Assembly: GCA_019326865.1 (NCBI GenBank) | Contig: GCA_019326865.1_4101.1 | DNA: 64,000 bases | Direction: 5' to 3' (one strand) | From: a phage | Part shown: positions 20,910 through 37,645 of the stretch, piece by piece | Position numbering within the stretch: the stretch's first letter is position 1 | Layout of the letters: the number at the start of each line of letters is the position of its first letter | Notes under the pieces: generated by a model | What the model was told of the DNA's origin: nothing | Database searches by the model: none | The model's input: the letters and a program-made list of their open reading frames with translations, nothing else | Program-made: the position numbers and the translations under genes

Positions 20910-21270
20910 ACAAGTAATATTCCTTTTGAATACAAGAAGTGAATTGTATACAGAGTTTAAAGAGATTAATGCATTTTATCAGAATTTTGTAATTCAAGAG
21001 TTCAGTGATTTAATTACAGATGCATTATTTGAATTATCGGAAAAATACAAAGGAACAGAGTTCAGTGTTAAAAATGTATTACGTTCTTTATCAACGCGTA
21101 TAATAAAATTAGATCATTTCAAATTTGAAAATAAAGATTTATTCAGTCACAATCCAAGTACAGCTTTATATTTTATTCCTGATTCAGACAAAAATCATCC
21201 TATTCATTACGGATGGATTTTGTCGTACATAGTACAAGGAAAGGAGTATCCTATTAAATGGAACGATTAG
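20875..21270 (+). CDS. hypothetical protein (131 aa)
   Basis: ORF track; no family motif. Confidence 0.5.
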   Translation: MNMNPTIVQDLKQVIFLLNTRSELYTEFKEINAFYQNFVIQEFSDLITDALFELSEKYKGTEFSVKNVLRSLSTRIIKLDHFKFENKDLFSHNPSTALYFIPDSDKNHPIHYGWILSYIVQGKEYPIKWND

Positions 21271-21418
21271 GGCGATTAGATTATTACACAATTAATACAA
21301 ATTATTTGTTGCGTAATATAAAATCCGATTACAAAATATGGATAAAGAACAGAGATAGCATGTGTTATGAATTTTATTTAGATTATGCTATCAAACGATT
21401 TTTAAGAGAAGAACATTA

Positions 21419-21622
21419 GTGCAAAATAGTAATACGATAACATTAAATGCATTACAGGATTCATTATTAGATAGTATTAAGATGTATTACAATATACATT
21501 TGAGGGGTGGCATTGATGATTATAATTATTATTTGAGTTTAATTGTAATTGAGCACCTTTCAGTACAGGACAGGATTTTACATCCTACAAATCCTAGGTA
21601 TCCATCGATAGGTAAATTATGA
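21419..21622 (+). CDS. hypothetical protein (67 aa)
   Basis: ORF track; start is GTG per track. Confidence 0.4.
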   Translation: MQNSNTITLNALQDSLLDSIKMYYNIHLRGGIDDYNYYLSLIVIEHLSVQDRILHPTNPRYPSIGKL

Positions 21623-22176
21623 ATGAGATAGAGTTATTAGCACACAAGATAAGTACAATAATGCTTATCCTCAATAACAACCATCCTATATCGCAGATAG
21701 ATGGAATCCTGAGTCAGAGGACAGGTGGTAGTTTATATTTGTCCCTAAACGCAAATATCGCAAGGAAATACATTGACATTGGTGATGTTGATGCTGAAAT
21801 CGAATGTGATACAACTGGAATTGTTGATGTAGGTGCATTAATCAGTTCAAATCCTGTATCAGTATCCCCGTTGACCAAAGGTGTTAGTACAGGATTCGAA
21901 GGATATTTGTGGTATAATGCTAATGATAATTATTTTATATATCAGCATTCTAATACAAATTATGATGAAGATAAATTTGAGTTCATTGACCCTTATGATG
22001 AAGCTGGAGTATTTCAACAATCATTAATCACAAAACCACATCAAATGATGTATCTAATGTTATTCAGTACAATGAATTTGAATCCATTAATTAATGGTTT
22101 AAAGTTTTATATTCAATTGAATTTGGTTCATGTAGTTTATGATTTATTAATGCAAGGATATAGTTATGAAGTATAA
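21619..22176 (+). CDS. family B paralog, hypothetical
   Basis: famB DEAGVFQQSLITKP; ATGA-coupled. Confidence 0.6.
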   Translation: MNEIELLAHKISTIMLILNNNHPISQIDGILSQRTGGSLYLSLNANIARKYIDIGDVDAEIECDTTGIVDVGALISSNPVSVSPLTKGVSTGFEGYLWYNANDNYFIYQHSNTNYDEDKFEFIDPYDEAGVFQQSLITKPHQMMYLMLFSTMNLNPLINGLKFYIQLNLVHVVYDLLMQGYSYEV

Positions 22177-22468
22177 AATGATGTATACTCCAGATATGAT
22201 TTATGTTGAATTAGAAGACGATGACGACGGCTGGAATTTGATTTATTCAATTAGTTCAGGTTGGTACATGGCACATTTAAATGATAACAAAGTTACAGAT
22301 TATTTTGTAGATTTCAACACCTTATCCGATGAAGAATTGTTTCAACAACAATTAGTGATTGATACAGGTGGTTATGATGTGTTATTATTAAAAAAGATAC
22401 AGAAAGCTGTTATTGATTTTAAGCCCAATATGTTGCAAAGGAAATATTATGACATCGAAGTACAATAA
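22166..22468 (+). CDS. family B paralog, hypothetical
   Basis: famB SDEELFQQQLVID. Confidence 0.6.
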   Translation: MKYKMMYTPDMIYVELEDDDDGWNLIYSISSGWYMAHLNDNKVTDYFVDFNTLSDEELFQQQLVIDTGGYDVLLLKKIQKAVIDFKPNMLQRKYYDIEVQ

Positions 22469-22802
22469 TGTATTTGATATTAAGAAATTAAAAGAATGGG
22501 TTTATAGTATTGAAATTGAAGCAATTCCTTATCATAGATACAAACAATATGATTTATGTAATATAGATATTCGTGAGTTGTACGCATATTATCAGAGTGC
22601 ATTAGAGATGCATAAGATATTTTTGAGTTCAAATTACATGACACGTTGTAATGATGCTTTTAAAGAATTTAATAATTATAATTTAGTACAAAAATATGTA
22701 GTATCAAAGTACATGTACAATCAAGGAATTAAAGGTTGTATTGAATTCAATTCGGTCTTTGCTTTAGTTGAGATAATTTTATGCAGTACATGTCTGATTT
22801 AG
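22449..22802 (+). CDS. hypothetical protein (117 aa)
   Basis: track ORF 22413..22802; start moved to ATG 22449 (MTSKYNNV) to reduce overlap. Confidence 0.5.
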   Translation: MTSKYNNVFDIKKLKEWVYSIEIEAIPYHRYKQYDLCNIDIRELYAYYQSALEMHKIFLSSNYMTRCNDAFKEFNNYNLVQKYVVSKYMYNQGIKGCIEFNSVFALVEIILCSTCLI

Positions 22803-23278
22803 AGTTTAGTTTAGATGCTGCTTTTAAATTTGTACACAAGATAGAAACAATATATCGTACATTATGTGCAATACGATTAGTAACATCTGAACTTGATGTT
22901 GGTAAAAGGTATCAGGTATGGAATAACACATTTCTAGACAAAGAGCGTTGTTCAACTGGGTTTAATATTTTATCATTTAATCCAAGTAATTGTTACCCAG
23001 AGAAGCATGAGCGTTATCCGAATGATGACATGTGGTTTGAGTACAAAGAAGATGGTGATATGTCGTTCATTGAAGTTCCTGATGATTTTAATGCACAAGA
23101 TTTAACAGAAGAATGGTGGTTCCAGCAGAATTTAGTCCACGATGATATTGATTTATTTTTTTATGTAGTATTTAAAATGCTTTATCACAACAAGATAGTA
23201 CAAGATAGTGTATTTTTTTCATGTCTATATATTGATGATTTGTACAATGAAATTCAAATCAACATGCCTGTATCGTAA
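22781..23278 (+). CDS. family B paralog, hypothetical
   Basis: famB TEEWWFQQNLVHDD. Confidence 0.6.
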   Translation: MQYMSDLEFSLDAAFKFVHKIETIYRTLCAIRLVTSELDVGKRYQVWNNTFLDKERCSTGFNILSFNPSNCYPEKHERYPNDDMWFEYKEDGDMSFIEVPDDFNAQDLTEEWWFQQNLVHDDIDLFFYVVFKMLYHNKIVQDSVFFSCLYIDDLYNEIQINMPVS

Positions 23279-23303
23279 GATATGGGCTTTTTTTGTTTTG
23301 GTA

Positions 23304-23332
23304 TTGACATAGAAGTACAAAACTGTTATCAT
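23304..23332 (+). promoter_or_regulatory. sigma70-like promoter
   Basis: TTGACA-17nt-TATCAT; SD AAAGGAGG before ATG 23359. Confidence 0.5.
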
Positions 23333-23358
23333 GGGTAATCATTTTAAAGGAGGAATTT

Positions 23359-23880
23359 ATGGCGAGTTTTATGGTTCCAAGTACATACGAAGATGCATCA
23401 AGTGCAGTGCATAAGGTTCATCATATTTTTAATTTAATTATTAATGCATCAAAAAATAAAATGTATGCACCTCTAGTGAAATTTAATAAAAATGAGGAAA
23501 TTTTTGTTAGTACAGAACAAACGATTTTTCCATATTTCAATAAAGATAGATTATGGTTCATGCATTCAGTTGCATTACAAAGATATAATATAACAAGATC
23601 CAACGAAAATCATAATCCAGGATATTTGCATATATCGTTATACCATCCCGATATTGGAGAGGATGTATATTTTCAGTACAGCACAGTACACTGCCATGAA
23701 GATATCTTTGCTGCTATGCTTATTGCTAAACTGAACACCGTTGATTTGGAGTACCACAAATACAATAATAAATCATTTAAGATCATAATCCCTGCATTCA
23801 TAGCTCTTTATGATTATGTGGTGCATAACAAAAAAGATGATACATATGCTTTCAATGAAGAGTATTTGGATTTTTTTTAA
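23359..23880 (+). CDS. family B paralog, hypothetical
   Basis: famB GEDVYFQYSTVHCHED. Confidence 0.6.
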   Translation: MASFMVPSTYEDASSAVHKVHHIFNLIINASKNKMYAPLVKFNKNEEIFVSTEQTIFPYFNKDRLWFMHSVALQRYNITRSNENHNPGYLHISLYHPDIGEDVYFQYSTVHCHEDIFAAMLIAKLNTVDLEYHKYNNKSFKIIIPAFIALYDYVVHNKKDDTYAFNEEYLDFF

Positions 23881-23889
23881 GGAGAACAT

Positions 23890-24435
23890 ATGAGCAGTAC
23901 AACAGTACAGAAAGCAATGACATTCAATGAAATTGGTGCATTTAAAGATAAGATTATTGATAGTATTGAATATTTGATTTGTTGTAACATCAATAAGATA
24001 GATGTATATAACAAGGTAAATGGTTCATGTCACACAATGTACATGACAAACAACAATGGAACTATTCCATTTATTTCGGATAGTACAATATGGTACGCAT
24101 GTGATACAACAAAATACACAGCAGGTTCGTATGTGTTAGGGACACATAAGGAATTAATTATTCCTGAGCATTGTATACAAGAAGAAGAATATTTTCAAAT
24201 GCAGTTAGTACACGCACCATTAGAGATGGTTGCTTTATATATGATACCTTATATCTCTAAATGTGTTCATGAGAATAAAGCTCCATGGAATCATGAATTT
24301 GGTTCGTTGAAGTTATTGTATAATGTTTTAGCACAATATTATGATTACAGACACGAGGGTACAATCAGCGATGTATGGGATTTTGAATCACTAAGGGTGA
24401 AAACATACACAGGTGAATTATATGTCCAGAATTAA
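23890..24435 (+). CDS. family B paralog, hypothetical
   Basis: famB QEEEYFQMQLVHAP; SD AAGGAGAA. Confidence 0.6.
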   Translation: MSSTTVQKAMTFNEIGAFKDKIIDSIEYLICCNINKIDVYNKVNGSCHTMYMTNNNGTIPFISDSTIWYACDTTKYTAGSYVLGTHKELIIPEHCIQEEEYFQMQLVHAPLEMVALYMIPYISKCVHENKAPWNHEFGSLKLLYNVLAQYYDYRHEGTISDVWDFESLRVKTYTGELYVQN

Positions 24436-25036
24436 AATGTGTGATTTGATGCAGTACAGTAAAATTGCAATTCCAGTACTTAATAAAGTTCTTGATGCAT
24501 TCATTGCAAAATACCCTGAGAATTCAGAATTACGTATTCCGTTTCGTGTACCAGACATAGATGATACATTCTATGTAAATGTCAGTACACGTGGTATTAC
24601 ATTGCAGCAGAAATACAGGGATACAGAATACTATGGAATAAAGTTGGATTCGGGGCAGGGTTCTAAATCATCCTATGATTTTTTTGTTCCTAATAATATA
24701 GAGTCATGGGAAACAAACATTTCAAAGAAAGATGAAAATGATGTTCCTATTAGTGGTGAATTAAGCAATAAAGTTTTTTATTATTACGAAACTGATAAAT
24801 TCCCTGAAGAGTTATATTACAATTCAGAAATGAGTGAAGATGTAGATGCATTCATGTTTCAATTATCTTTAGTACAGGATATAATTAATGTTCAAGAGTT
24901 AAGAGCAGAAATCAATTTAGCTAAAGAGTTGTCGGACATGTTGCCACCGTTTAGTATGATTTTTTGTGAAGGAGGTTATTTTACAAAAGAAGTGTTTGAA
25001 CATTTCGTAGATGTTGTAAAAGGGTTGGATATATAG
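24413..25036 (+). CDS. family B paralog, hypothetical
   Basis: famB DVDAFMFQLSLVQD. Confidence 0.6.
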   Translation: MNYMSRIKMCDLMQYSKIAIPVLNKVLDAFIAKYPENSELRIPFRVPDIDDTFYVNVSTRGITLQQKYRDTEYYGIKLDSGQGSKSSYDFFVPNNIESWETNISKKDENDVPISGELSNKVFYYYETDKFPEELYYNSEMSEDVDAFMFQLSLVQDIINVQELRAEINLAKELSDMLPPFSMIFCEGGYFTKEVFEHFVDVVKGLDI

Positions 25037-25037
25037 T

Positions 25038-25268
25038 ATGCTTACTGATGATATTAAACAAAAATACCGTAAGTTTGATTGGTTCACCGACAGTTTCCAG
25101 CTTGAATTACTGCATTTGAATATAAGTGAGACATTATGTGCAGAAACACAAGATGAATTTGATGACAGAGTTCTTAACATAGTAATGCTTTCTTGCTTTA
25201 AACACTTTGGTTATTTTTCGAACAGGATTAAGGTACAAAATGCATCAACACAAGCATCATTCATATGA
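25038..25268 (+). CDS. hypothetical protein (76 aa)
   Basis: ORF track; no family motif. Confidence 0.45.
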   Translation: MLTDDIKQKYRKFDWFTDSFQLELLHLNISETLCAETQDEFDDRVLNIVMLSCFKHFGYFSNRIKVQNASTQASFI

Positions 25269-25755
25269 TTTTGCAATTAACATTATGAAGTTCATTCGAG
25301 CGTTGGAGGATGGGAAGCTTAGTCATAAGTACAGGAAAGAGGGTAACAATTGGTTCAGAAATGATTCCGAGTTCAGGAGTCATAACATCGTGTATAGCAA
25401 TCAGTACAGTGCTAATTACCTACAAGATGTAGTGATGTGTTTTGAATATGTATTGCAGTTCAGGGGTACAATCCAGAATGAATTAATGGATCACATGTAC
25501 ATCCGATACCTTCCAATGCATAAAGATGAAAATGCATTATTAGGTTCAATATACCAACGAGTAAGGGAAATTGAGTGCAGGGATATATTAGATACAGAAG
25601 AATCGTATTTCCAGCAATCTCTTATTACTGCACCTGATTCATTACAGGCACATAATTTGTTTAATACATTACGTCAGAACATCAGTACAGACATATTTTT
25701 GTCATTATTGGATTATGATACATTTGTCAAAGATTTAGAGGAAATAGGTTTATGA
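25240..25755 (+). CDS. family B paralog, hypothetical
   Basis: famB TEESYFQQSLITAPD; start moved from track 25207 to ATG 25240. Confidence 0.55.
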   Translation: MHQHKHHSYDFAINIMKFIRALEDGKLSHKYRKEGNNWFRNDSEFRSHNIVYSNQYSANYLQDVVMCFEYVLQFRGTIQNELMDHMYIRYLPMHKDENALLGSIYQRVREIECRDILDTEESYFQQSLITAPDSLQAHNLFNTLRQNISTDIFLSLLDYDTFVKDLEEIGL

Positions 25756-26108
25756 GTATATTTTCGGTTTATATAGTAAACGTCCACAACGATGGTAGTT
25801 TAATTGAATTTGATCTAGTTGATAACGATGATAATGCATATGGTATTAAAGTGCAGGGAGATGAAGTGCAGTTCACTACAAGAACAAATTTTGAAAATCC
25901 AGTCCAAGTTCCTAATTTCATAGAAGATGAAGCTGCACGATTCCAATACGAAACGATATACGAGAATGTACATATGCATACTGTTATGCAACAAAGTTTA
26001 GTTCAATTAGTTCCTTTGTTTAAACAAAATATATATGTACATGAATTGTCGATTAATGACGTTCGCAGTTCCGTTTTGTTCGGTTCCAGTGATACCGATG
26101 ATATGTAA
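25752..26108 (+). CDS. family B paralog, hypothetical
   Basis: famB DEAARFQYETIYEN; ATGA-coupled. Confidence 0.55.
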   Translation: MSIFSVYIVNVHNDGSLIEFDLVDNDDNAYGIKVQGDEVQFTTRTNFENPVQVPNFIEDEAARFQYETIYENVHMHTVMQQSLVQLVPLFKQNIYVHELSINDVRSSVLFGSSDTDDM

Positions 26109-26117
26109 GGAAGTGTT

Positions 26118-26666
26118 ATGAGTTTATTAGATACATTAGAAAAAGACCGAAGTGCAATTAAACGATTAAAAAAGCAAATTCAAAAGATTGTATACAACGT
26201 TGATAAGTTTGAGGTTCCTGGGAGAGTAGGTGATATTTCCCATACTGAGATCAAATCCCTTAAGTCAGATTTGTTGTTAAAAAATAAAAATGAGTTGATT
26301 TTAGTTTTGAGTTCAGATATGATGGGGGTAAGATATGGTTTTAATTCAGTATCAGTGCATCCTAAGAGTGAAGGGATATATCTATCACAGGGTTTCAATA
26401 GCAACGAGCAGAAGTGTTTTTACGATGCTGTACATGAACCTTTGAAGTTTACGAGAAGTGAAGCTCAAGCGTTATTAGAGCTATCAGACGAGAGTTTGTT
26501 TCAGTACAGTACAATGTACGACAATGACAAGCTTCGTTGTATGTACGCAGTGAAGCATTATGCACATGAGTTCTCTGGATTTGAATACCTTTTAGTTAGA
26601 ACCAATACAATGTATCTTGATATGTTAGAAGAATACATCGATAAAGTTGTTAATGAGTATCACTAA
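26118..26666 (+). CDS. family B paralog, hypothetical
   Basis: famB SDESLFQYSTMYDND. Confidence 0.6.
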   Translation: MSLLDTLEKDRSAIKRLKKQIQKIVYNVDKFEVPGRVGDISHTEIKSLKSDLLLKNKNELILVLSSDMMGVRYGFNSVSVHPKSEGIYLSQGFNSNEQKCFYDAVHEPLKFTRSEAQALLELSDESLFQYSTMYDNDKLRCMYAVKHYAHEFSGFEYLLVRTNTMYLDMLEEYIDKVVNEYH

Positions 26667-26819
26667 TGAAAGAGTTATTTGAAGATCAGTTCAATACCTA
26701 TGTGGATAATATTCTTTATTCCAATCGTGCCAGTCAACGAGGAAATCGTGCTTACAATATTGATTACCTATTAGTGGTACTGAGTTCACAGTACACACAC
26801 GCTGTACAGAGGATGTATT

Positions 26820-27023
26820 ATGAATAGTTATCACGATATTGCAAAGGAGAAGTTGGAGTGTAGTTTAGATTACGGTTTAAATAATTTTCTTACATGCACA
26901 ATGTACAGGGATGAAGATTATGAACAATCCGTAATTTCGTTGCATAGATATTTCGAAATAATTTACGCAAGATATCTTAGAAGGTTAGACGGGATAGGGG
27001 ATTGGAATTATGATTACGTTTGA
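26820..27023 (+). CDS. hypothetical protein (67 aa)
   Basis: ORF track. Confidence 0.45.
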   Translation: MNSYHDIAKEKLECSLDYGLNNFLTCTMYRDEDYEQSVISLHRYFEIIYARYLRRLDGIGDWNYDYV

Positions 27024-27264
27024 AGAACCTGAAACAATGAGTCCATATACGATGAAAGGTTTTGAATTCATGATGGATTCGATTTTGAAGAGTTCGTGTT
27101 TAGTACACAATCCTGGATGTGCTACAGTGAGGGAATATCAGGACAATGCATTGCATCGTGTAATGAATATGTACAGGAATACGAGCCGTAAGCTTTGTGC
27201 GATTAAAAGGATTAAAGAAATCAAGGCTTCTAAGATGAATAAAATCAATCCGTGTGATTTTTGA
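27010..27264 (+). CDS. hypothetical protein (84 aa)
   Basis: ORF track. Confidence 0.45.
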   Translation: MITFEEPETMSPYTMKGFEFMMDSILKSSCLVHNPGCATVREYQDNALHRVMNMYRNTSRKLCAIKRIKEIKASKMNKINPCDF

Positions 27265-27300
27265 AATCTTCGTATTCATATATCATAAGGTTTAATAAAA

Positions 27301-28029
27301 ATGAAATATAAAGAATTTTGTATAAAAACATGGATGTACACTGGTGAATTGCTTACGTGCTGTAATTTGTACAAGCGTGATGTAAACTTCACAAAGGACA
27401 AAGTTATCAAGTATGAAAATTCTCAATTTTATTTGATGGATTTTAGTACTGGGTTTCATGGTAAATCAACCGAGATGCTGGATTATACATTAATGGATGA
27501 GGCGGCACTATTTCAAGAATCATTAGTATTTGATAAGAAGTACATCTGTACATTAGAAGAGATGATTGAAATTCAGAATAAAATTAAATGTGTTCACAGG
27601 GAATGTATTGATAAATGGTGTAAAACTGGTGAAACTGATTTTAGTAATCATTTTAATTTAGGAGAAAGAGTGATGGAATTTGATTTTTTAATATCAGTGC
27701 ATACATTCAAGAATACACATCAGTACTTTTGTAATTTAAACAAAGGTGATTTAATGCACAGTGCGAATGAGTATATTCATTTTATGGATGGTAAATTCAC
27801 ATTCATTGATTACAGTTCATTACAATATCCACATCAAGATATGCCGGACTATACAATAATGAATGAGGCTGAACTATTTCAAGCTTCATTAGTATTTGAC
27901 AAGAAGTACATCTGTACATTTGAAGAAGTAATTACTATACAAAATGAAATGAAGGAGTATGCATCTTTGAATAAACCCAATGAAGGTATTAATCAAGAAT
28001 ACAAATTCAATATAGAGATTCCAAAATGA
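27301..28029 (+). CDS. family B paralog with internal tandem duplication
   Basis: two motif copies: DEAALFQESLVFDKKYICTLEEM and NEAELFQASLVFDKKYICTFEEV. Confidence 0.6.
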   Translation: MKYKEFCIKTWMYTGELLTCCNLYKRDVNFTKDKVIKYENSQFYLMDFSTGFHGKSTEMLDYTLMDEAALFQESLVFDKKYICTLEEMIEIQNKIKCVHRECIDKWCKTGETDFSNHFNLGERVMEFDFLISVHTFKNTHQYFCNLNKGDLMHSANEYIHFMDGKFTFIDYSSLQYPHQDMPDYTIMNEAELFQASLVFDKKYICTFEEVITIQNEMKEYASLNKPNEGINQEYKFNIEIPK

Positions 28030-28385
28030 CATATGATTATTCTATGTACTATTATAAGTTACCTAAAGGATGGGACTTGTGCTGTAATCTTATTAAGGGA
28101 GACTCGGAACATGAGTTGAATTTATATATGCACTACAAAGATTCTTGTTTTAAATTTATTCATGTATCACATGATGACTATGACTATGAATCTGAGAGTC
28201 TTATAGATTATACAGTACTGGACGATGGCGAACTATTTCAGGAAGCATTAGTGTTTGATAAGAATAAGTACTCCTGTACATTTGAAGAAATGGTTTCTTT
28301 GCAAACTGAAATGAAGAGATTTGAAAAAGAAAACGTATTTAATCCATCCCCATCAAGAACGAATAATTATTATTTCAATATATGA
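28026..28385 (+). CDS. family B paralog, hypothetical
   Basis: famB DDGELFQEALVFDKNKYSCTFEEM; ATGA-coupled; third copy of the unit in 27301..28029. Confidence 0.6.
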   Translation: MTYDYSMYYYKLPKGWDLCCNLIKGDSEHELNLYMHYKDSCFKFIHVSHDDYDYESESLIDYTVLDDGELFQEALVFDKNKYSCTFEEMVSLQTEMKRFEKENVFNPSPSRTNNYYFNI

Positions 28386-28394
28386 GATTATAAA

Positions 28395-28877
28395 ATGACA
28401 TTACAGAGTTCATTGGAAAAAGCAAAGAAGATTCATGAGTACATGAATATGGCAAAAGAAGGTTCAGTTTACGGTGTTTTCAAAGACACAAGTACTCAAT
28501 ATTATGTGCCGGATAACCTCCTTTATAATGACTACTCAGATACAGAAACGTGCGTACTGGATACCGACCCTAAAGATTATGAATGTTTCATTGATATGCA
28601 TTATGAGTACATGGTCTATATTAATGATGCAGATATTACCATATACAGTACTGACTGCGATTCTGATGACATTATAATTCCTAGTGAAGTTCTGAATGGC
28701 CCGTGGGATAGTGAAGAGTATTACTTCCAACAAAGTACTGTATACAATGAAGAAGTACTTGATGTTATTATAATTATGTGGTACTTTAAAAATATTGGTT
28801 CTGATAACTTCTATTTCGATTACAGATACGTAAAGAAAGCTATAGATAACGATATTAATAAACCACACGGGGGTTGA
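28395..28877 (+). CDS. family B paralog (WYFK subgroup)
   Basis: famB DSEEYYFQQSTVYNEE...WYFKN; N-terminus MTLQSSLEKAKK. Confidence 0.65.
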   Translation: MTLQSSLEKAKKIHEYMNMAKEGSVYGVFKDTSTQYYVPDNLLYNDYSDTETCVLDTDPKDYECFIDMHYEYMVYINDADITIYSTDCDSDDIIIPSEVLNGPWDSEEYYFQQSTVYNEEVLDVIIIMWYFKNIGSDNFYFDYRYVKKAIDNDINKPHGG

Positions 28878-28878
28878 A

Positions 28879-29349
28879 ATGAGTTTAGAAAGAGCATTAG
28901 AGATTGCGAAGTTAATTGATTTATGCAGCAAAGAAATTGTATCAAATTGTCTCAATGGATATCTATTCAAGGAAGGTAAATCATATTGTCGAATGAGATA
29001 CGATGACAGTAGTGAGTATATTCACATGTATGAAGAAGACCTTGATGATTCCGAAATAACACTGAATGGGTGTGATGTTAATCTGGAAGATAATTACATT
29101 TACTTCAGTCGTGGTGCTGATATTTTAATACAAGAAACATCAATTCAACATGTGAATCCAGATGTATATCTTCCATATTCAGTACTGGATAATGACTGGG
29201 GAAGTGAAGAGGTTTACTTTCAGCATAATACTATCTACGATGAAGATGTGCTTGACAAGCTTGTCATTCTGTGGTACTTTAAGAACACTGATACTCCCAA
29301 CTTCTATATGGATTTGGATCTACTACGAGTTATAAAAGAGGATATATGA
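28879..29349 (+). CDS. family B paralog (WYFK subgroup)
   Basis: famB GSEEVYFQHNTIYDED...WYFKN. Confidence 0.65.
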   Translation: MSLERALEIAKLIDLCSKEIVSNCLNGYLFKEGKSYCRMRYDDSSEYIHMYEEDLDDSEITLNGCDVNLEDNYIYFSRGADILIQETSIQHVNPDVYLPYSVLDNDWGSEEVYFQHNTIYDEDVLDKLVILWYFKNTDTPNFYMDLDLLRVIKEDI

Positions 29350-29789
29350 GTTTAGCAAGTGCACTTAAACTGGCACACAAAATACATCACTTCCACGATA
29401 ACATAAAAAGTGGGTTCAATGGTGATAAAGTAAGTGCATTGGGTAATGAGTATTATCTATCAGGTATAAAGACATACTCTGATGATATTTTACTTATGGG
29501 ACATGATAAAGACAATACTATACAGTACTCTTCATGTAGTCAATATACTAGTTTTATGGTATATATTCCAGGTACTAAGATTACGTTTGACACATCAAAT
29601 TCACCTGTTGACTTCGGGGTACTTGATGGCCCGTGGGGTACTGAAGAGTATTACTTCCAACAGAGTCTTATTTTCAACCAAGAAATTCTTGATTCCTTGG
29701 TTGTTTTGTGGTACTTTAAGGAATTGAATTTTGAACCATTCTTTCTTGACTGGGGAGCATGTGAGTATTTAAGTACAGGGGATTTGTAA
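29346..29789 (+). CDS. family B paralog (WYFK subgroup)
   Basis: famB GTEEYYFQQSLIFNQE...WYFKE; ATGA-coupled. Confidence 0.65.
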   Translation: MSLASALKLAHKIHHFHDNIKSGFNGDKVSALGNEYYLSGIKTYSDDILLMGHDKDNTIQYSSCSQYTSFMVYIPGTKITFDTSNSPVDFGVLDGPWGTEEYYFQQSLIFNQEILDSLVVLWYFKELNFEPFFLDWGACEYLSTGDL

Positions 29790-30277
29790 TGTCGTTACAA
29801 AGTGCATTAAAAGAAGCAAAGAAAATCCATGAGTACATGATTATGGTACAAGAAGGTTCAGTCCCAGGTGTGTATAAAACATCTGATACTGAATTTTTTG
29901 TAAAAGACCGTGACGATTATGATGAGTCAGAGATATGTGCAGAAACGTTAGTACTGCACACTGATACTGGTGATAGTGATAACTGTGAATATCATATGTA
30001 CAATCAATACATTAGTTATTGCCGTAATGAAGATATTACCATCTACAACACAGATATTGATGCTGATGACACTATCATTCCGTATTCAGTACTGGAAGGT
30101 CCGTGGGATAGTGAAGAGTATTACTTTCAGAATAGTACTATCTACAATGAAGAAGAACTGGATGTTATTGTGATTATGTGGTACTTTAAAAGTATTGACT
30201 CCAGTAGTTTCTATTTTGATTATGAATATGTAGAGAATACAGTAGGAGAAGGTAATGTCATTACAAAGTGCTCTTGA
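29789..30277 (+). CDS. family B paralog (WYFK subgroup)
   Basis: famB DSEEYYFQNSTIYNEE...WYFKS. Confidence 0.65.
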   Translation: MSLQSALKEAKKIHEYMIMVQEGSVPGVYKTSDTEFFVKDRDDYDESEICAETLVLHTDTGDSDNCEYHMYNQYISYCRNEDITIYNTDIDADDTIIPYSVLEGPWDSEEYYFQNSTIYNEEELDVIVIMWYFKSIDSSSFYFDYEYVENTVGEGNVITKCS

Positions 30278-30701
30278 AAAAGCAAAAGAACTACATGGAT
30301 ACTTTGAAGATATAAAGGCAGGAAAGTTCAAAGAAGTATACAAAGCCGAGAACGGTAACTACTACAAAGATGAAATATATAATAATTCCGTTGGTGTAAG
30401 GGTTATTCTTGGGTTGAATTCCAATAGTCCTGTGTCGTTTTCTGAATACAATAGAGATGCAGAATTCATTAGTTATGTTGAAAATGGTAGCATTCGTTTT
30501 ATTAATAGACAAAAACCATTAATTTTGAATTATGAAGTTCTGGATGGTCAATGGGATAATGAAGAGTATTACTTCCAAAACAGTACTGTATACGACGATG
30601 AAGTACTTGAAGCATTAGTTATTATGTGGTACTTCAAGAGTATTAACTGTCCTCGATTTTATTTGGATTTCGAAGAACTTGGTAAAGATCCAGAGGTATA
30701 G
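30255..30701 (+). CDS. family B paralog (WYFK subgroup)
   Basis: famB DNEEYYFQNSTVYDDE...WYFKS; SD AGGAGAAGG. Confidence 0.65.
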   Translation: MSLQSALEKAKELHGYFEDIKAGKFKEVYKAENGNYYKDEIYNNSVGVRVILGLNSNSPVSFSEYNRDAEFISYVENGSIRFINRQKPLILNYEVLDGQWDNEEYYFQNSTVYDDEVLEALVIMWYFKSINCPRFYLDFEELGKDPEV

Positions 30702-31017
30702 AATGAAAAACTTATTCAGTGTTCAGTACGTTCCAGGTGAAATTAGTTTATTGTATCTCTTTGACCATGATAATTCATTATTACTAGTAGTAAAGAAATG
30801 TCAAGCTAGTTCGTTTGTTGAATACATTCACGATAATGAATATATACCTGATTTTTTAGAGTGCGATTATTACGATGATCATGAATCATTTATTTTTCAG
30901 GAATCGCTAGTATGGGACAAATCGATTAACTTCTTTACGTTAATTGAATTACAAAAGCAAGTGAAGTATCATTGGGATTATTTAATTACACAGGATTACA
31001 TTGAGATAGAAATATAA
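30679..31017 (+). CDS. family B paralog, hypothetical
   Basis: famB DHESFIFQESLVWDKS. Confidence 0.55.
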   Translation: MVKIQRYRMKNLFSVQYVPGEISLLYLFDHDNSLLLVVKKCQASSFVEYIHDNEYIPDFLECDYYDDHESFIFQESLVWDKSINFFTLIELQKQVKYHWDYLITQDYIEIEI

Positions 31018-31325
31018 TGACTAAAAATGAATTTGATTCACTTTGTACTGTTTATAATTCATTAACAGAAATACCTAACTTTATTAGTTATATTTCAGCT
31101 TTAAATCACATTATGCATAGTTTTGAACAATCGTTTGAGGAGAAATATGCTGGAAGAAAAGTTCTATGTCATATGCCAATGTACTTAGGAGATGGTGAGC
31201 CTTACACTACAAGTACTACATGTGAAATAAAAAAATATAATATATTATTGGGTACTATAGAATTCACAGTATCCAATGGCGGTAGTTATATGTACTTTAG
31301 AGATGGAGTGGTTGAATTATTATGA
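31017..31325 (+). CDS. hypothetical protein (102 aa)
   Basis: ORF track; no family motif. Confidence 0.5.
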   Translation: MTKNEFDSLCTVYNSLTEIPNFISYISALNHIMHSFEQSFEEKYAGRKVLCHMPMYLGDGEPYTTSTTCEIKKYNILLGTIEFTVSNGGSYMYFRDGVVELL

Positions 31326-31771
31326 GTTACGAAAGTGCAATCAAGAAAGCAAATGATATTCTACGCGTCGTTCAATTCTTCAAAGAAAATCCTGAATACG
31401 TAGATGATAAAAACCAAGAGCACGATGAGAGATTGAGACGAAAAATTATCTCTTTATTTGACACTAATAAAGATAATTGGAGTCTAATTGAGTTAGCATA
31501 CGATTATATTTCATTGAACCGAAATGATGATGTAGTTAAGATAGAAAGGCATGAATCAGAAGAATCTTTTAAAATTTCAGATATTTTATCCCTGAGTACT
31601 GAAGAAGGGTACTTCCAGGGTAGCACTCTTTATAATGAAGAAACACTTGACAATCTATGCACATTCAGTGTAATATATCAGAAATCTGTACTAGATATAT
31701 TTTATCTTGACACTGCTGAACTGCATACCCTAACCAATTTTGTTACTACCGAAGAGGCTACATTCGAGTGA
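31322..31771 (+). CDS. family B paralog, hypothetical
   Basis: famB STEEGYFQGSTLYNEE; ATGA-coupled. Confidence 0.6.
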   Translation: MSYESAIKKANDILRVVQFFKENPEYVDDKNQEHDERLRRKIISLFDTNKDNWSLIELAYDYISLNRNDDVVKIERHESEESFKISDILSLSTEEGYFQGSTLYNEETLDNLCTFSVIYQKSVLDIFYLDTAELHTLTNFVTTEEATFE

Positions 31772-32304
31772 TGAAAGTTAACATTAATGACTTTGATGCA
31801 TTACAAGATTTATCAAAAAAGATTCGCACCATCGTACCAGTACTTAAAAAATGCAGTACTGGTTTAATCGATCCTAGTTCTGTTGTCAATGAGAAGTACA
31901 ATTTTCATCGTGTATTACAGGGGACAGGTGCATTTCAGAAGTGTGAGGTACGTGAGAAACATGTAATTGATACATCGTTGTTTTCTATTGGTGCACCTGT
32001 GTCAAACAATACTATTTTCCTGGATGCATCTGGAAATATTCAACAATTAACATTTAAGAAAAGGAAAAAGAATAATAACATTGGTGTGTACGCGATGAAG
32101 TGGGGACAGCCAGCGTTGATGCGTGACATTCACATTCCTAAGTACAATTTCAATGCATTTGAAGAACAGTGTTTTCAACTTTCTTGTACTGACCCTGACT
32201 ATGCTATCATTCAATTCTATATGGAATTGCAGATTGCATTTAATAGTAATTTGTATATTAACTTATTGGCAATGAACATAGATGAAGTATTCAAAAACAT
32301 TTAA
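31768..32304 (+). CDS. family B paralog, hypothetical
   Basis: famB AFEEQCFQLSCTDPD; ATGA-coupled. Confidence 0.55.
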   Translation: MMKVNINDFDALQDLSKKIRTIVPVLKKCSTGLIDPSSVVNEKYNFHRVLQGTGAFQKCEVREKHVIDTSLFSIGAPVSNNTIFLDASGNIQQLTFKKRKKNNNIGVYAMKWGQPALMRDIHIPKYNFNAFEEQCFQLSCTDPDYAIIQFYMELQIAFNSNLYINLLAMNIDEVFKNI

Positions 32305-32500
32305 TCGAATTGAATACATGAGAACTGTGAGAGCGGTGTGGAATATATGGTACACTACTAAACCAAAAATGGATTACCATGATTTTAAGCTCTTGTTCTT
32401 TGTTGGCTCTAACAAACAGGATGTTGCAATGAAGGGTTATATTCAGCACTTACAGGAACTAATCCAGAAGAGAATATATGAAAATAATAGACCAAAATGA
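32282..32500 (+). CDS. family A paralog, hypothetical
   Basis: famA-like VGSNKQDVAM; stray copy inside family B array. Confidence 0.5.
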   Translation: MKYSKTFNRIEYMRTVRAVWNIWYTTKPKMDYHDFKLLFFVGSNKQDVAMKGYIQHLQELIQKRIYENNRPK

Positions 32501-32669
32501 CATTGCTAAACTATTCAATATATATTCTACTAGAATGATGCAAACAGATTCATATAGTACTAAATTCAAAGAGTTGAAAGTACTGATGTACTTGGGAACA
32601 CAATATCAGGAACAAGTTATTTTAGAATATATTAATTCATTAAAGAAGGATATCCGTGATGTACGATGA
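32478..32669 (+). CDS. family A paralog, hypothetical
   Basis: famA LGTQYQEQVI. Confidence 0.55.
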   Translation: MKIIDQNDIAKLFNIYSTRMMQTDSYSTKFKELKVLMYLGTQYQEQVILEYINSLKKDIRDVR

Positions 32670-33219
32670 TTTAGATCTTGCGTTTGAACGCATGAAAATT
32701 TTAATGCAATGCAATGAAATGCATGAGACAATCCGTCGCACCAAAGGGATTGAATATACAAGTAAACTATTCTCATACGAAAGTCGTCGAGGGATGGATC
32801 ATTTTTACTGCACTGATTGTTCAAAGTTTTCAGTACTGAAATATTATCATCCTACTGTTTCCAATAATAGTTTAATATCCACATATGACGGTGATCTGTT
32901 TAGTGTAATGTATGACACATTACATCCATCAATTTCAATATATAAAGATTGCGATAGTAGTCTATCGTATATAATTGAAGATTACTTATCTCCTAATACT
33001 GAAGAGAATATATTTCAAAACAGTGTATTGCATGATGAATTAAGTATAAAATGCATCTATATGTTCAATAAGTTAAAAGAATACGTTGATAATAATTACT
33101 TAATTGATGAGTTAGCTGTGTTTTCGGTTTCAGTTTTCAATACAAATGATGTTGATATGAAATACTATAATGAAATTTGTAAAGTACATAACATGTATAA
33201 GGAACTCTTATGCTACTAA
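32656..33219 (+). CDS. family B paralog, hypothetical
   Basis: famB TEENIFQNSVLHDE. Confidence 0.55.
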   Translation: MMYDDLDLAFERMKILMQCNEMHETIRRTKGIEYTSKLFSYESRRGMDHFYCTDCSKFSVLKYYHPTVSNNSLISTYDGDLFSVMYDTLHPSISIYKDCDSSLSYIIEDYLSPNTEENIFQNSVLHDELSIKCIYMFNKLKEYVDNNYLIDELAVFSVSVFNTNDVDMKYYNEICKVHNMYKELLCY

Positions 33220-33812
33220 ATGCCAATAAATGTTGTAGTGCAGATGTGCATTTGTTTTTTAAGAAATTGGCAAATGATATTATATATATGCAGGAAATGA
33301 TTTACCACAAACGAACAGATTTAGAAAAAGCATTAGTACAGTTCTCCTTTATGCTTGATGGTGATATATTTCTACATGGTGATACATTGCGAACAGTACT
33401 GGACGGAAATTCAAATAGAAGTTTCATTTGTACAAATAATAAATTTTCTTCCACGATGTGCCGTACTTTTTATAATCCTGATTCGGACTTATATCAAGTG
33501 TCGTATTCTAAAGGTGCAGTTGAATCATCATATTGTGATAGTTCAGCTTTAGGTAAAAGTCGTCCATATATGCAATCATTTGAAATTGAACTCATCAGTA
33601 CTGATGAAGATGCAATGTTCACAAATGATATAACGATGGATCGTGAATCTGCAATGATATATATTACAAATTCTATGCATACATTCTTTCAACGATTAGA
33701 ATTTGATAATGTATATATATCAAATGTAAATATTTTCAATGATCTGTGTCAGTACTTGAAAAGTGTTTGTGATTTTGATGAAAGCTATTGTAAGCTTTAT
33801 ACTGAGGTATAA
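33210..33812 (+). CDS. hypothetical protein (200 aa), possible degenerate family B
   Basis: ORF track; weak motif TDEDAMFTNDITMD. Confidence 0.5.
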   Translation: MLLNANKCCSADVHLFFKKLANDIIYMQEMIYHKRTDLEKALVQFSFMLDGDIFLHGDTLRTVLDGNSNRSFICTNNKFSSTMCRTFYNPDSDLYQVSYSKGAVESSYCDSSALGKSRPYMQSFEIELISTDEDAMFTNDITMDRESAMIYITNSMHTFFQRLEFDNVYISNVNIFNDLCQYLKSVCDFDESYCKLYTEV

Positions 33813-33817
33813 AACAA

Positions 33818-34180
33818 ATGAACACATTAAGTATTACATACTATACAACTAAAAAATTAGTTACTTGTTTAATATCATTGAAGTCAAAAAATGATGATAT
33901 GTTTGATATGGCTGCATATGAATTAGAATTATCAGAAGATGGTTTCAAGATCTATGAAGTATATAGCTATGTTCGTGAAGATGTAATTGACACTACACTA
34001 ATGCAAGAGGATGAGTTATTCCAAGAAAGTTTAGTATGGGATAATAAGTACGATTGTAACTTTGATTTCTTATGTTTAATCCAAAAAGAAATGAAAAGAA
34101 TCTTTGATAATTATCCAATCAAACGTTTCAGTACTGCACCTGAGCAATATAAAAGGATTATATTCACCTATGAAGATTGA
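33818..34180 (+). CDS. family B paralog, hypothetical
   Basis: famB QEDELFQESLVWDNKYDCNFD. Confidence 0.6.
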   Translation: MNTLSITYYTTKKLVTCLISLKSKNDDMFDMAAYELELSEDGFKIYEVYSYVREDVIDTTLMQEDELFQESLVWDNKYDCNFDFLCLIQKEMKRIFDNYPIKRFSTAPEQYKRIIFTYED

Positions 34181-34547
34181 ATTTGAAGTTATTACATATA
34201 GTATAGGTGATGGTATCCGTTGCTACGTACAAGCAAGGCATATTGTTCCTGATGATAAACTGTCACCCAAAAGTTTCCTTATTACACAAGAACTCTTAGA
34301 TATTAACAGAGAGAACAAGTATACATATTATCTCACTAAGGGTTATTGTGGTTCGCGTGGTTTTAATATTGTAGCTGTTTCTAGAGATGAAATTGATGAT
34401 TTAACTGAGTACGGTGAAGAAGAGATGTTCCAGTACAGTACTGTTTTTAATGATCTGGATGTGTTTCTGTTACGAAAAATACAACACATTATGCAAGAAT
34501 GTTTGCATCATAAGAGAGGTATTGTATGCGACGTGAAATTGAATTAG
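34170..34547 (+). CDS. family B paralog, hypothetical
   Basis: famB GEEEMFQYSTVFND; start moved from track 34104 to ATG 34170. Confidence 0.55.
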   Translation: MKIEFEVITYSIGDGIRCYVQARHIVPDDKLSPKSFLITQELLDINRENKYTYYLTKGYCGSRGFNIVAVSRDEIDDLTEYGEEEMFQYSTVFNDLDVFLLRKIQHIMQECLHHKRGIVCDVKLN

Positions 34548-34867
34548 TTAAAGTAATGTACGCTACTCATATTAAACTACTACTTGTGAAATTTGATTAT
34601 AATAAAAAACATAATGATTTCTATACGTTGATTCGTGATGAAAATTCATTCTCCTTGCGATGCAACAATATACAGTGGACGATAAATGATTTTTCTTCAC
34701 TTGACGAAGGTGAATTATTTCAAGAATCATTAGTTCTTAATAGTAATATAAAAATTGATATAGAAGCTATTAAAAAATACCAGATTTTATTAAACAAAAT
34801 TATGAATTGTTATCCATGTGAAATAGGCGGTAATATGCAGTTCAAATCAAAAATGTATGAATTATGA
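34526..34867 (+). CDS. family B paralog, hypothetical
   Basis: famB LDEGELFQESLVLNS. Confidence 0.55.
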   Translation: MRREIELVKVMYATHIKLLLVKFDYNKKHNDFYTLIRDENSFSLRCNNIQWTINDFSSLDEGELFQESLVLNSNIKIDIEAIKKYQILLNKIMNCYPCEIGGNMQFKSKMYEL

Positions 34868-35411
34868 GGTTTATATGTTAGATGAAAAAATGAACGCTGG
34901 AACTCAATATAATCATCTTAAGTTGGATACATTTGAATCAGCTATCAGTACTGCACAAGATATTATCGATATTATTAAGTACATTAAAGAAAATAAGTTA
35001 AAATGTGTGAAAACACCCGAACGTACAATGTATAAAGATGACTGTATTCACGTATCTGTTGTTAATCCAAAAGATAAGGATGGTAATAGAGATTTCTATA
35101 ATAACAGTGAGCAGTTCGAATGTGAATATGATCCAGAATTCAGAGGCGGTTTCATGTGTTACAGTATGAAGGATACCTCACACATTGAGATACGTTCATC
35201 TAAAGGTGGCATACGTACATTAGAGTTCATTGATATAGTTTTAAATCAGGAATACTACTTTCAACTATCATTATTGTTTCCTGCATACGATTTAGGAGTT
35301 CTATTCATGTATAAGTACTTTTATGAGCACTTGAATGAAGACTTCTATCTGGACTTAGAAGATTACCAATTAGTTTGGGAAGAAATGGTAGAACTTCGCA
35401 ACCACCCTTGA
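34857..35411 (+). CDS. family B paralog, hypothetical
   Basis: famB NQEYYFQLSLLFPA. Confidence 0.55.
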   Translation: MNYEVYMLDEKMNAGTQYNHLKLDTFESAISTAQDIIDIIKYIKENKLKCVKTPERTMYKDDCIHVSVVNPKDKDGNRDFYNNSEQFECEYDPEFRGGFMCYSMKDTSHIEIRSSKGGIRTLEFIDIVLNQEYYFQLSLLFPAYDLGVLFMYKYFYEHLNEDFYLDLEDYQLVWEEMVELRNHP

Positions 35412-35470
35412 CACCCACCGATTCTTTGTGATATAATCCCTTTATATTAATTTTAAAGGGTTATAACACA

Positions 35471-35947
35471 ATGTCAAACGAACTCACATTCACCAATGCA
35501 CAAAAGATAGCAAAAGACATTATCAGGGTTTATAAATTCCTTGCGAATGTTACTGAAGATTTTTTAATTGATAAAAATAAAGTTATTAAGCGAAATGGAT
35601 ACCTTTCCTTTATGGATGGGTTGCTCTATAGTTCAGATGAGTCAGCTTGTAGTATTAGAGTACTTGATACTGTACCAAGTGGTGATTTTATTTCATACCA
35701 TTTTCCAAGTTCAGATAAGTTCAAATACTACAATAGTATTCTCATAGCAGAAGACTTTGATACGATTGTAATTAACACTGAAGAAGAGTTCTTCCAGTAC
35801 AGTACTGTGTACCCAGAGAGGATTGTTTTCAGTTCAGTGATTTACACTACCCTTAAAAATGAACTAAATTCCGATAGTGATCATTTCTACTTGGACCTGA
35901 ATAATATCGATTGTATTATTGAGTACATGGAGAAAAATGGTTTATGA
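35471..35947 (+). CDS. family B paralog, hypothetical
   Basis: famB TEEEFFQYSTVYPE. Confidence 0.6.
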   Translation: MSNELTFTNAQKIAKDIIRVYKFLANVTEDFLIDKNKVIKRNGYLSFMDGLLYSSDESACSIRVLDTVPSGDFISYHFPSSDKFKYYNSILIAEDFDTIVINTEEEFFQYSTVYPERIVFSSVIYTTLKNELNSDSDHFYLDLNNIDCIIEYMEKNGL

Positions 35948-36447
35948 TTACTACAGAATATGATTACAATAGTGTCCTTGAATTTGCAGAAAATATATAT
36001 CGTATTGCAAAGGAGTTCAGAAGTCCTGAGCCGTTTGGTGGTATGTTCGAATACGATGAGTTTAGTTCATCAAAAGGAAGACTTGCATTTACTAATGGTA
36101 GAGGTAATCAAATCTACACAGAGTACTTTGATGACAATGACTTTCATCACAAAGCCGAATACATTTCATATTGCCCTGGGTCTGATTTGAAGATTCATAT
36201 TGAAAGAGATATAGAAAATGTATTTGTTCCATATACTGATTTAGTCTTCATGTCAGAGGAAATGTACTTTCAGGAATCATTGATTCATGATACAAAAGTA
36301 CTTAATACTATATTATTATATGGTACACTACTTAATCATTACAAATACAATCAAAGATTCTTTTTAGATTTAGTAGTATACCATCAATGTGTGGATTATT
36401 TGAATGCAAAATCAGACAACAATTCAGTACATGACCGATGGTTCTGA
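35944..36447 (+). CDS. family B paralog, hypothetical
   Basis: famB SEEMYFQESLIHDT; ATGA-coupled. Confidence 0.6.
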   Translation: MITTEYDYNSVLEFAENIYRIAKEFRSPEPFGGMFEYDEFSSSKGRLAFTNGRGNQIYTEYFDDNDFHHKAEYISYCPGSDLKIHIERDIENVFVPYTDLVFMSEEMYFQESLIHDTKVLNTILLYGTLLNHYKYNQRFFLDLVVYHQCVDYLNAKSDNNSVHDRWF

Positions 36448-36766
36448 ATACTTTGTTTCAAGATATGTAATAAATCACAACCATTATGTAACCTATATTC
36501 CAGAGTACAATCAATTTTATATCCAGATTTATCAACATAATGGAAAGAGAAATGATATATATTCAGAAATAAAAATCCCTGATTATAGTTCTTTATCAGA
36601 AGAGGAATTGTTTCAGGAGAGCACTATCAGTACTGAAGATGTGTACGAAATAATGGAGTACCAGAAGGTACTTAAACATTTTCATGAAACAAATGATATA
36701 CAAATAGATATTGTTAAACCGTGGTGTTACAATACATATGAGGTAAATTATGTTAGAAATGATTAA
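36431..36766 (+). CDS. family B paralog, hypothetical
   Basis: famB SEEELFQESTISTED; start moved from track 36404 to ATG 36431. Confidence 0.55.
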   Translation: MTDGSEYFVSRYVINHNHYVTYIPEYNQFYIQIYQHNGKRNDIYSEIKIPDYSSLSEEELFQESTISTEDVYEIMEYQKVLKHFHETNDIQIDIVKPWCYNTYEVNYVRND

Positions 36767-37163
36767 AATTATGCAACGCTGTCTTATTGACAAATACGGG
36801 ATATATGGATATCGTTTAAGTGCTCCTATTGACAAAAATAAAACAACCTATGTAAGTTATAATGCTGTACAAGGGTTTGATATATTCATTAGTACTAATT
36901 ATCAAATCAAACAAGCTAAAGATGTGTCTATAATGACCCCTGATGAGTTATTTCAGTACAGCTTAGTTCTTCCTACATGTATCGATTTACAACGTCTAGG
37001 AGCGATACAGAAGGTTTTACGCGAACATAAAGTACAACCCAATAAAGTCACGCACATTCCAGAAACAATCTTCAAAACTATAGAAGTAGAAACCCCTGAT
37101 TATATGTTAAGTGATGATGAATTCTACGAGAAGCACTTCCCTGGTAAAGTTTGGAGAGACTAA
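36750..37163 (+). CDS. family B paralog, hypothetical
   Basis: famB TPDELFQYSLVLPT. Confidence 0.55.
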   Translation: MLEMIKIMQRCLIDKYGIYGYRLSAPIDKNKTTYVSYNAVQGFDIFISTNYQIKQAKDVSIMTPDELFQYSLVLPTCIDLQRLGAIQKVLREHKVQPNKVTHIPETIFKTIEVETPDYMLSDDEFYEKHFPGKVWRD

Positions 37164-37645
37164 TGAACCGAAAGTACAGAGAAACTATGAAGTTCGCTAA
37201 GGAGTGTTTAGAGACATTTGATTTCATTTTCGATAACAAAGACTCACTTGGTCATTACTTCGTAATTACAAAAAAAGAAGATGAGAGATACAAGTGTCAA
37301 AGATTAGGATACAGTATTGAGTTATCCTTAATGAGTGATGGTATGATAAACTCCATATATGAATCTGGTAAGACAGATTACATTTCATTTAGATCATGGA
37401 GTGATAATATAATGTTCTTGAGTCCTAATGGAAGTAAATATCCATTCATTAATGATTTATCAGAAGAAAGTTACTTTCAAAACAGTTTAATTTATACAGA
37501 AAAAGAACTCAAAATGTTATTCATAATGTCGTACTTTAAAAAGTACTGTAAATTTAAATCATTATCTTTTGAGATTTCTGCGATGAAAGTATTCATTAAA
37601 AATGTAAAAGAATTAAAGAGGGCTTTTAATGTACATAGAAAATGA
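37151..37645 (+). CDS. family B paralog, hypothetical
   Basis: famB SEESYFQNSLIYTEKE...SYFKK. Confidence 0.6.
   Translation: MERLMNRKYRETMKFAKECLETFDFIFDNKDSLGHYFVITKKEDERYKCQRLGYSIELSLMSDGMINSIYESGKTDYISFRSWSDNIMFLSPNGSKYPFINDLSEESYFQNSLIYTEKELKMLFIMSYFKKYCKFKSLSFEISAMKVFIKNVKELKRAFNVHRK

Follow-up and report, generated by a model that had tools for sequence, protein, structure and literature searches.

Five tandem paralogs in a large array of small acidic proteins of an Asteriusvirus-type jumbo phage

Tandem arrays that lie near a genome end, evolve by birth and death, and combine a conserved module with a diversified binding surface are found in the MGF360/505 families of African swine fever virus (ASFV) and in the ankyrin (ANK)/PRANC proteins of poxviruses. 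Neisseria pilE/pilS, Borrelia vlsE and diversity-generating retroelements (DGRs) place conserved frames around a variable segment; these systems change rapidly within a population and need near-identical handles, silent donors or a template repeat with a reverse transcriptase. Among phages, the paralogs of RaK2, which make up ~10% of its gene products (PMC3622015), and the paralog-rich genome of CBB have been noted in general terms, and Bacillus phage G carries a zinc-ribbon expansion of ~35 copies (PMC7824862). Here, a 64,000-nucleotide (nt) stretch of phage DNA (contig GCA_019326865.1_4101.1; the whole stretch is referred to as the window) was analysed with a focus on five adjacent genes, g1–g5, at positions 28395–30701. 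A preliminary description made from the DNA letters had regarded them as near-isogenic genes displaying cassette-like variation on a fixed scaffold.

The five genes represent an old, local burst of tandem duplication within a very large family of small, acidic and soluble non-virion proteins that is restricted to one phage lineage. As a cluster of tandem paralogs, the block is ordinary, and it is no variation machine. The explanation favoured here, in which these old paralogs are probable binders of host targets, is given a probability of roughly 60% as a whole. Its evolutionary part (duplication, divergence and recombination between phages) is very probable, while its functional part (early binders or inhibitors of host targets) is tentative, with chances that are even at best. 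The family, called the F-Q superfamily below, resembles the phage expansions named above in being large, confined to one lineage, mostly of unknown function and several percent of the genome in extent. Unlike the expansion of phage G, it contains no zinc ribbon and no other known domain. In layout and mode of evolution, the F-Q array is similar to the ASFV and poxvirus arrays, to which it is unrelated in sequence and fold; a role in host range or immune evasion is established for those families and conjectured for the F-Q array. The likeness to pilE/pilS, vlsE and DGRs is only superficial and lies in the conserved frames around a variable segment, and g1–g5 display none of the features tested.

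The window belongs to an Asteriusvirus-type Escherichia coli jumbo phage of the PBECO4/121Q/UE-S1 group. The 2.3-kb five-gene region is matched by 34 phage records, all of which are Escherichia/Salmonella Asteriusvirus jumbo phages (PBECO4, 121Q, phAPEC6, UE-S1 and others). Nucleotide identity to Asteriusvirus records is 87–94%, with UE-S1 being the nearest (94.2%). The direct orthologs of g1–g5, with conserved order and orientation, are 121Q gp370–374, PBECO4 AGC34872–34868, phAPEC6 gp442c–438c and UE-S1 UES1_323–328. Orthologs of the five proteins have thus already been deposited, and they are labelled hypothetical in all matching records; the five belong to an existing PHROG (9317, no known function). 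Unlike these orthologs, the window is its own mosaic of alleles, in which g2 is 100% but g3 only 81% identical to UE-S1. A literature search found no paper that describes the F-Q family, as defined by its motif, fold, size of at least 34 members and position by the terminal repeat.

The five genes and their conserved frame

The preliminary description was right in the placement of five adjacent same-strand genes:

28395..28877, + strand: g1, open reading frame (ORF) of 160 amino acids (aa), isoelectric point (pI) 4.1, net charge −20; matches phrog_9317 with E 8e-64
28879..29349, + strand: g2, ORF of 156 aa, pI 4.1, net charge −21; starts 1 nt past the g1 stop
29346..29789, + strand: g3, ORF of 147 aa, more divergent than the other four; start and g2 stop codons overlap (ATGA)
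29789..30277, + strand: g4, ORF of 162 aa, pI 4.05, net charge −26; its nearest paralog is g1 (56% aa identity)
30255..30701, + strand: g5, ORF of 148 aa; its first 23 nt lie within the end of g4; UE-S1 is annotated with the same start

The junctions of +1, −4, −1 and −23 nt indicate translational coupling, and the UE-S1 annotation places ribosome binding sites at the g1–g5 orthologs. The proteins are homologous: BLASTP E values among them range from 1e-19 to 1e-57, and all five match phrog_9317 (E 3.5e-52 to 2.7e-66) over profile positions 1 to ~155 of 160. They have pI values of 4.05–4.54, net charges of −11 to −26 and no hydrophobic segment. The WYFK subgroup that they form is confined to 36 Escherichia/Salmonella phage records with about five copies in each, and the g1–g5 reading frames are unbroken in nearly all of these records.

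The genes are far from near-isogenic, as pairwise identity is only 27–56% for the proteins and 48–69% for the DNA. The “long near-identical DNA stretches” were also overstated. The 26-mer quoted as an example is present only at 28701 (g1) and 30101 (g4), and the longest exact match between any other pair is 10–21 nt. The proposed start motif MxLxSALxxAKKIHEY fits g4 alone, and EEYYFQ[QN]ST[VI]Y[ND]EE and LDV[IV][IV][IL][ML]WYFK are exact only in g1 and g4; the relaxed forms EE.YFQ and WYFK are found in all five proteins. WYFK had been taken to be the ending, but 15–28 residues come after it. A DNA-level signal hidden in the motif (GAA GAG TAT TAC in four of the five genes, with GTT as the third codon in g2) was considered and rejected, because the synonymous codons of the F-Q motif vary freely across the 34 members of the wider family.

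The proteins are conserved in an N-terminal helix and in the core near the C-terminus (W..EE.YFQ.S...WYFK), and they vary in the middle and in the C-terminal tail. A repeat search found two blocks that all five copies share, one of 51 nt at the gene start and one of 144 nt in the core, which recur at a spacing of 437–493 nt:

29786..29836, + strand: 51-nt gene-start block (N-terminal helix MSLQSAL..AKKIH), reference copy; other copies at 28392, 28876, 29343 and 30252; 61–78% identity
30083..30226, + strand: 144-nt C-terminal core block (W..EE.YFQ.S...WYFK), reference copy; other copies at 28683–28826, 29176–29319, 29613–29756 and 30531–30674; 63–79% identity

In the alignment of the five paralogs, mean pairwise column identity is 0.57 in the C-terminal core, 0.18 in the middle and 0.07 in the tail. 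The middle is indeed variable, but variation is not concentrated there alone, since the tail is highly variable too. Uniform divergence, which the preliminary description had set against its own pattern, is not seen: none of 10,000 column shuffles reached the observed variance among alignment windows.

AlphaFold models of g4 (predicted local distance difference test, pLDDT, of 87.9 and predicted template modelling score, pTM, of 0.83) and g3 (pLDDT of 89.2 and pTM of 0.86) display one α+β fold with an identical order of elements: a helix (residues 3–22), seven strands, two short helices, a long helix, a strand and a final helix. The second short helix is formed by EEYYFQx, and the long helix carries WYFK. 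The 144-nt block corresponds to helices 109–115 and 121–135 of the g4 model. Because the order of elements is the same in both models, the variable middle is predicted to be not an exchangeable insert, but one and the same seven-strand β-sheet with diverged residues and loops of differing length. No match to the fold of the family was found in the PDB, and sequence-profile searches of Pfam, NCBIfam, PADLOC and the PDB identified no known domain or defence family. The best domain or profile matches, DUF669 (E 0.12) and SMC5 (E 0.032), are at chance level and were dismissed.

Cassette exchange and divergence of the paralogs

Conserved frames could serve as recombination handles in a programmed process that shuffles the middles by gene conversion or by a DGR-like or invertase-driven mechanism. 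The 51-nt and 144-nt blocks flank the variable middle in all five copies, and conservation is significantly clustered, as such a process would have it. However, the blocks are only 61–79% identical, and their longest exact run is 26 nt. Furthermore, the proportion of synonymous differences (pS) between the paralogs of this window is 0.44–0.67 in the core and 0.58–0.82 in the middle. Such a high pS in the core argues that the conserved frame is held by selection at the protein level and not by DNA exchange, and it rules out recent gene conversion among the paralogs. The C-terminal core of SP27 g5, which is 74% similar to g4 and 77% similar to g5 of the window, could hint at an old conversion event. 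The paralogs also rank congruently in all segments. The pair g1–g4 is the nearest in every one of them (68% identity in the N-terminal helix, 49% in the middle and 77% in the core), with other pairs being 10–23% identical in the middle and 47–64% in the core. This ranking fits vertical divergence with region-specific rates.

The same conclusion is reached when orthologs are compared (10–12 sequences per gene, comprising the window and 9–11 related phages, loci L001–L012). The middle of each paralog is 80–88% identical among orthologs. The pooled ratio of nonsynonymous to synonymous differences (pN/pS) is 0.23 in the N-terminal helix, 0.35 in the middle, 0.19 in the core and 0.49 in the tail, and values for individual genes range from 0.19 to 0.40, the latter belonging to g1, orthologs of which are present in nine of 11 phages examined. 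Since the middles of orthologs are conserved and pN/pS is below 1, each copy keeps its own selected sequence. Judging by these alignments, the middle varies from one paralog to another without being hypervariable in the population. The idea of positive selection on the middle was also considered: only codons 76–105 of g2 and 76–90 of g5 approach a pN/pS of 1, the pooled values are below 1, and 10–12 genomes are too few for site models, so it was set aside. The comparisons show that purifying selection at the protein level maintains the helical parts, and that the sheet and its loops, which are almost random when paralogs are compared, are conserved among the orthologs of each lineage. Every copy therefore has a stable, selected specificity of its own.

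These values also bear on the possibility that the genes are functionless filler, i.e. decaying duplicates tolerated in a large genome. They have no assigned function, copy content varies between phages, and selection is relaxed compared to typical core genes (pN/pS of 0.2–0.4). Nevertheless, with all five ORFs intact in nearly all 36 records, pN/pS well below 1 in every region, a confidently predicted and conserved fold, and start/stop coupling retained, the filler explanation has almost no likelihood.

The components of a variation system are missing as well. All five copies are complete, coupled ORFs with their own start codons and are under purifying selection, and silent or truncated donors are absent. 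A pair of near-identical template and variable repeats was not found in the 27–32 kb region, in which the best direct repeats are the paralog blocks themselves (60–86% identical). No reverse transcriptase was found among the ten large ORFs of the window that were scanned against Pfam. Recombination breakpoints, the search for which was proposed in the preliminary description, do exist, but the tracts they delimit were exchanged between phages and do not bracket the middle segment. In a sliding comparison with UE-S1, the window is 99–100% identical outside two tracts:

28643..28869, + strand: recombinant tract 1; 32 positions differ from UE-S1 (23 substitutions and a 9-nt indel; ~14%)
29417..29980, + strand: recombinant tract 2; 97 mismatches, 17% divergent from UE-S1; 94–97% identical to JP4, PBECO4 and SP27

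Tract 2 begins near codon 24 of g3 and ends near codon 64 of g4. As it runs from inside one gene to the middle of the next, its breakpoints do not frame the variable segment. Of the original idea, the fixed scaffold with a variable middle holds, as shown by the clustered conservation; its cassette part finds no support in the fold, genealogy, pS, orthologs, breakpoints or intact copies, and programmed cassette variation is largely refuted.

Variation between related phages also involves entire genes. In vB_Ec-M-J and ph0011, g1 is replaced by a short-type family member and a small ORF, and in six or more other records the match begins only with the last 26 nt of g1. In phage A4, g5 and its downstream neighbours are replaced, and the g5 allele of SP27-type phages is just 72% identical. 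In SP27, EC.P1, vB_Ec-M-J and ph0011, a member of the F-Q family (147–157 aa) is found instead of the unrelated 102-aa gene that occupies positions 31017–31325 of the window. These comparisons attribute the diversity between phages to mosaics created by homologous recombination and to occasional gain, loss and replacement of whole members, with no programmed cassette mechanism. At a smaller scale, g1 orthologs in phAPEC6, PBECO4, SP27, 121Q and other phages carry a 21–24 nt insertion (at ~28553 of the window) that duplicates DTETCVL in the variable middle, and the middle of g1 therefore evolves by small tandem indels too.

The F-Q array and its position in the genome

A hidden Markov model (HMM) seeded with the five genes and iterated to convergence at 34 ORFs outlined the wider family:

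19287..46613, + strand: F-Q superfamily array; 34 HMM-detectable members, all on the + strand, and ~9 more motif-bearing ORFs

Membership in the superfamily was defined here by the motif [ED][ED]x[aromatic/aliphatic]-F-Q-x-[SN]-[TL] located about two thirds along a 100–200 aa protein, together with a match to the iterated HMM. By this definition, g1–g5 are members. Across the 34 proteins, only F-Q is invariant; the S two positions on is near-invariant (at least 90%), and acidic residues precede the motif. In g4, these three residues are F113, Q114 and S116. Outside two young clusters (g1–g5 and a triplet at 27301–28385), BLASTP E values between members are mostly greater than 1e-8. The family has a median pI of 4.7, and no member contains a hydrophobic segment. 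Altogether, a single orphan fold, in at least 34 diverged copies, takes up ~8% of a 350-kb phage genome (about 27 kb). Nine further ORFs, which start at 24413, 25752, 31768, 39894, 41468, 42604, 43744, 45703 and 49318, are not detected by the HMM and carry a motif of the [ED]..x-F-Q-x-[S/E/N] type at the expected relative position. Judging by this motif, the superfamily may exceed 40 members in the window.

The 242-aa ORF at 27301–28029 contains two short-type family domains, which are fused here and in UE-S1 but encoded by two genes in most relatives (gp367/gp368 in 121Q). This ORF and the next gene (28026–28385) contain three copies of a 59-nt block with 83–86% identity and represent a younger duplication than the five-gene block. 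In another family member (31322–31771), the motif EEGYFQGS fits the consensus of the tobacco etch virus (TEV) protease site, E-x-x-Y-x-Q-(G/S), and the family-wide E-E-x-Y/L-F-Q is similar. The residue after Q is highly variable, and the resemblance to a protease site is probably a coincidence.

A profile search of 1.84 billion representative proteins returned only 129 clusters at E ≤ 1e-3. Ten clusters were sampled, and the five with organism names belong to Asteriusvirus, to Klebsiella RaK2/K64-1/KP13-7 or to ~350-kb contigs in E. coli assemblies, with the exception of one 513-nt partial contig labelled Actinomadura. Fold matches in BFVD for which the organism is given (121Q, RaK2, GAP32, Serratia phage BF and SP27) are all from RaK2-like jumbo phages; many of the matches are nameless. 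On the strength of these matches, the F-Q family is restricted to RaK2-like jumbo phages.

The direct terminal repeat of fEgEco12 and vB_Ec-M-J is ~21 kb long and has been defined experimentally (PMC13070987). The 3.4–11.6 kb stretch of the window, which is highly mosaic between phages, maps into the annotated repeat of these two phages, and the coordinate offset places the start of the array a few kb beyond the repeat boundary. The window contains 15 perfect TTGACA-N16-18-TAWAAT sites (0.45 expected). Eleven of these sigma-70 sites are located within 3422–11595 on the + strand, before tiny ORFs, and most of them share a TAGTACTGTATAAT extended −10. Two putative promoters sit in two of the rare intergenic gaps of the array, and the first of them is the nearest strong promoter-like intergenic site upstream of the five genes:

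23304..23332, + strand: sigma-70-like promoter (TTGACA-17-TATCAT with TG), just past a terminator-like hairpin at 23266–23287
35408..35437, + strand: perfect sigma-70 consensus promoter in the 35411–35471 intergenic gap, inside the array

This location has a bearing on whether the genes might encode structural or assembly proteins, e.g. low-copy components or chaperones of the hair-like capsid or tail fibres of Asteriusvirus, in which case their diversification would reflect receptor or fibre diversity. Asteriusvirus virions bear unusual fibres with no assigned genes (PMC7247149), and many of their proteins are hypothetical. However, the 62 proteins detected by mass spectrometry in the virion of one relative, phAPEC6, include none from gp347 to gp549, and the g1–g5 orthologs gp442c–438c are missing from this list (PMC7247149). 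In addition, the genes are found in a region of sigma-70-type promoters beside the terminal repeat, with the structural modules far away, and their products are small, globular and acidic proteins with no fibre-like repeats. A structural role is very unlikely in the light of these data.

Possible functions and neighbouring genes

In the favoured explanation, g1–g5 would be co-transcribed within a long, tightly packed + strand unit, the start of which lies a few kb inside the boundary of the left direct terminal repeat. Host promoters of the sigma-70 type would drive this unit, which would make its expression early or delayed-early. The proteins may bind or inhibit different host targets in host takeover or anti-defence. 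The surface of the variable sheet would be responsible for target specificity, and the conserved helical module would maintain the fold or provide a shared contact. If so, the array would be rich in unexplored inhibitors of E. coli proteins and would clearly illustrate how a bacteriophage multigene family evolves by birth and death.

Several points weigh against this functional part. The literature search found no expression, interaction or phenotype data for any family member, and no Asteriusvirus transcriptome. Early timing is suggested by the position of the genes and by analogy with T4 and T5. Promoter-like sites within the array are consensus matches only and are not enriched over shuffled sequences (109 found vs 130 expected). 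Ortholog pN/pS is below 1 in every region and comes near 1 only in the two short windows in g2 and g5, so the clear arms-race signature that is often displayed by anti-defence genes is missing. Acidity is common in phage proteins (the median pI of non-family ORFs in the window is 5.3), and one family member has a pI of 9.1. Finally, mass spectrometry can miss low-abundance virion proteins.

The charge of the proteins brings to mind DNA mimics of the Ocr/ArdA type, anti-restriction or anti-nuclease proteins, the negative surface of which imitates DNA and blocks host nucleases. Similar to T7 Ocr and ArdA, g1–g5 are small, very acidic (pI 4.05–4.54, net charge to −26 on 162 residues), non-virion and presumably early, being encoded in an early-type region with tRNA-repair counter-defence genes nearby. 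Of these properties, only acidity is shown to be common to both, and no sequence or fold similarity between g1–g5 and T7 Ocr or ArdA was detected. DNA mimicry is rather improbable, because searches of Pfam, NCBIfam and PADLOC gave no match for the proteins, acidity is not uniform across the wider family (in which pI reaches 9.1), and it is hard to explain why a phage would need between five and over 34 distinct mimics of the same ligand.

A bolder proposal, which is unlikely to be correct, is that the C-terminal F-Q module and the N-terminal helix form a common docking element for one host or phage machine (a protease, RNA polymerase or the ribosome), and that the sheet of each paralog picks a different host protein. 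If true, the phage would encode, in this array, a library of adaptors or inhibitors that share a fold without a solved analogue. Located beside the genome end that enters first, the array would be to a bacterial virus what the ANK/PRANC and MGF arsenals are to poxviruses and ASFV. Independent of this proposal, the array of at least 34 members with an orphan fold is a moderately interesting lead for work on phage–host interactions.

No tRNA genes were found in the window. Downstream of the array, the window encodes a T4-type RNA ligase 1 (Rnl1) and a polynucleotide kinase/phosphatase (PNKP) at 59225–60367 and 61464–62396. Rnl1 and PNKP are the classic tRNA-repair pair that counters defence by anticodon nucleases. 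In the promoter-rich region at 3400–11600, short segments (~8% of the query) that include a GNAT acetyltransferase region are ~89% identical to unrelated smaller E. coli/Shigella phages (muut and SF1-1), and this similarity suggests gene exchange across phage groups. A 213-aa ORF in the same region (8931–9572) displays weak, sub-threshold matches to protein kinase domains (E ~2e-3).

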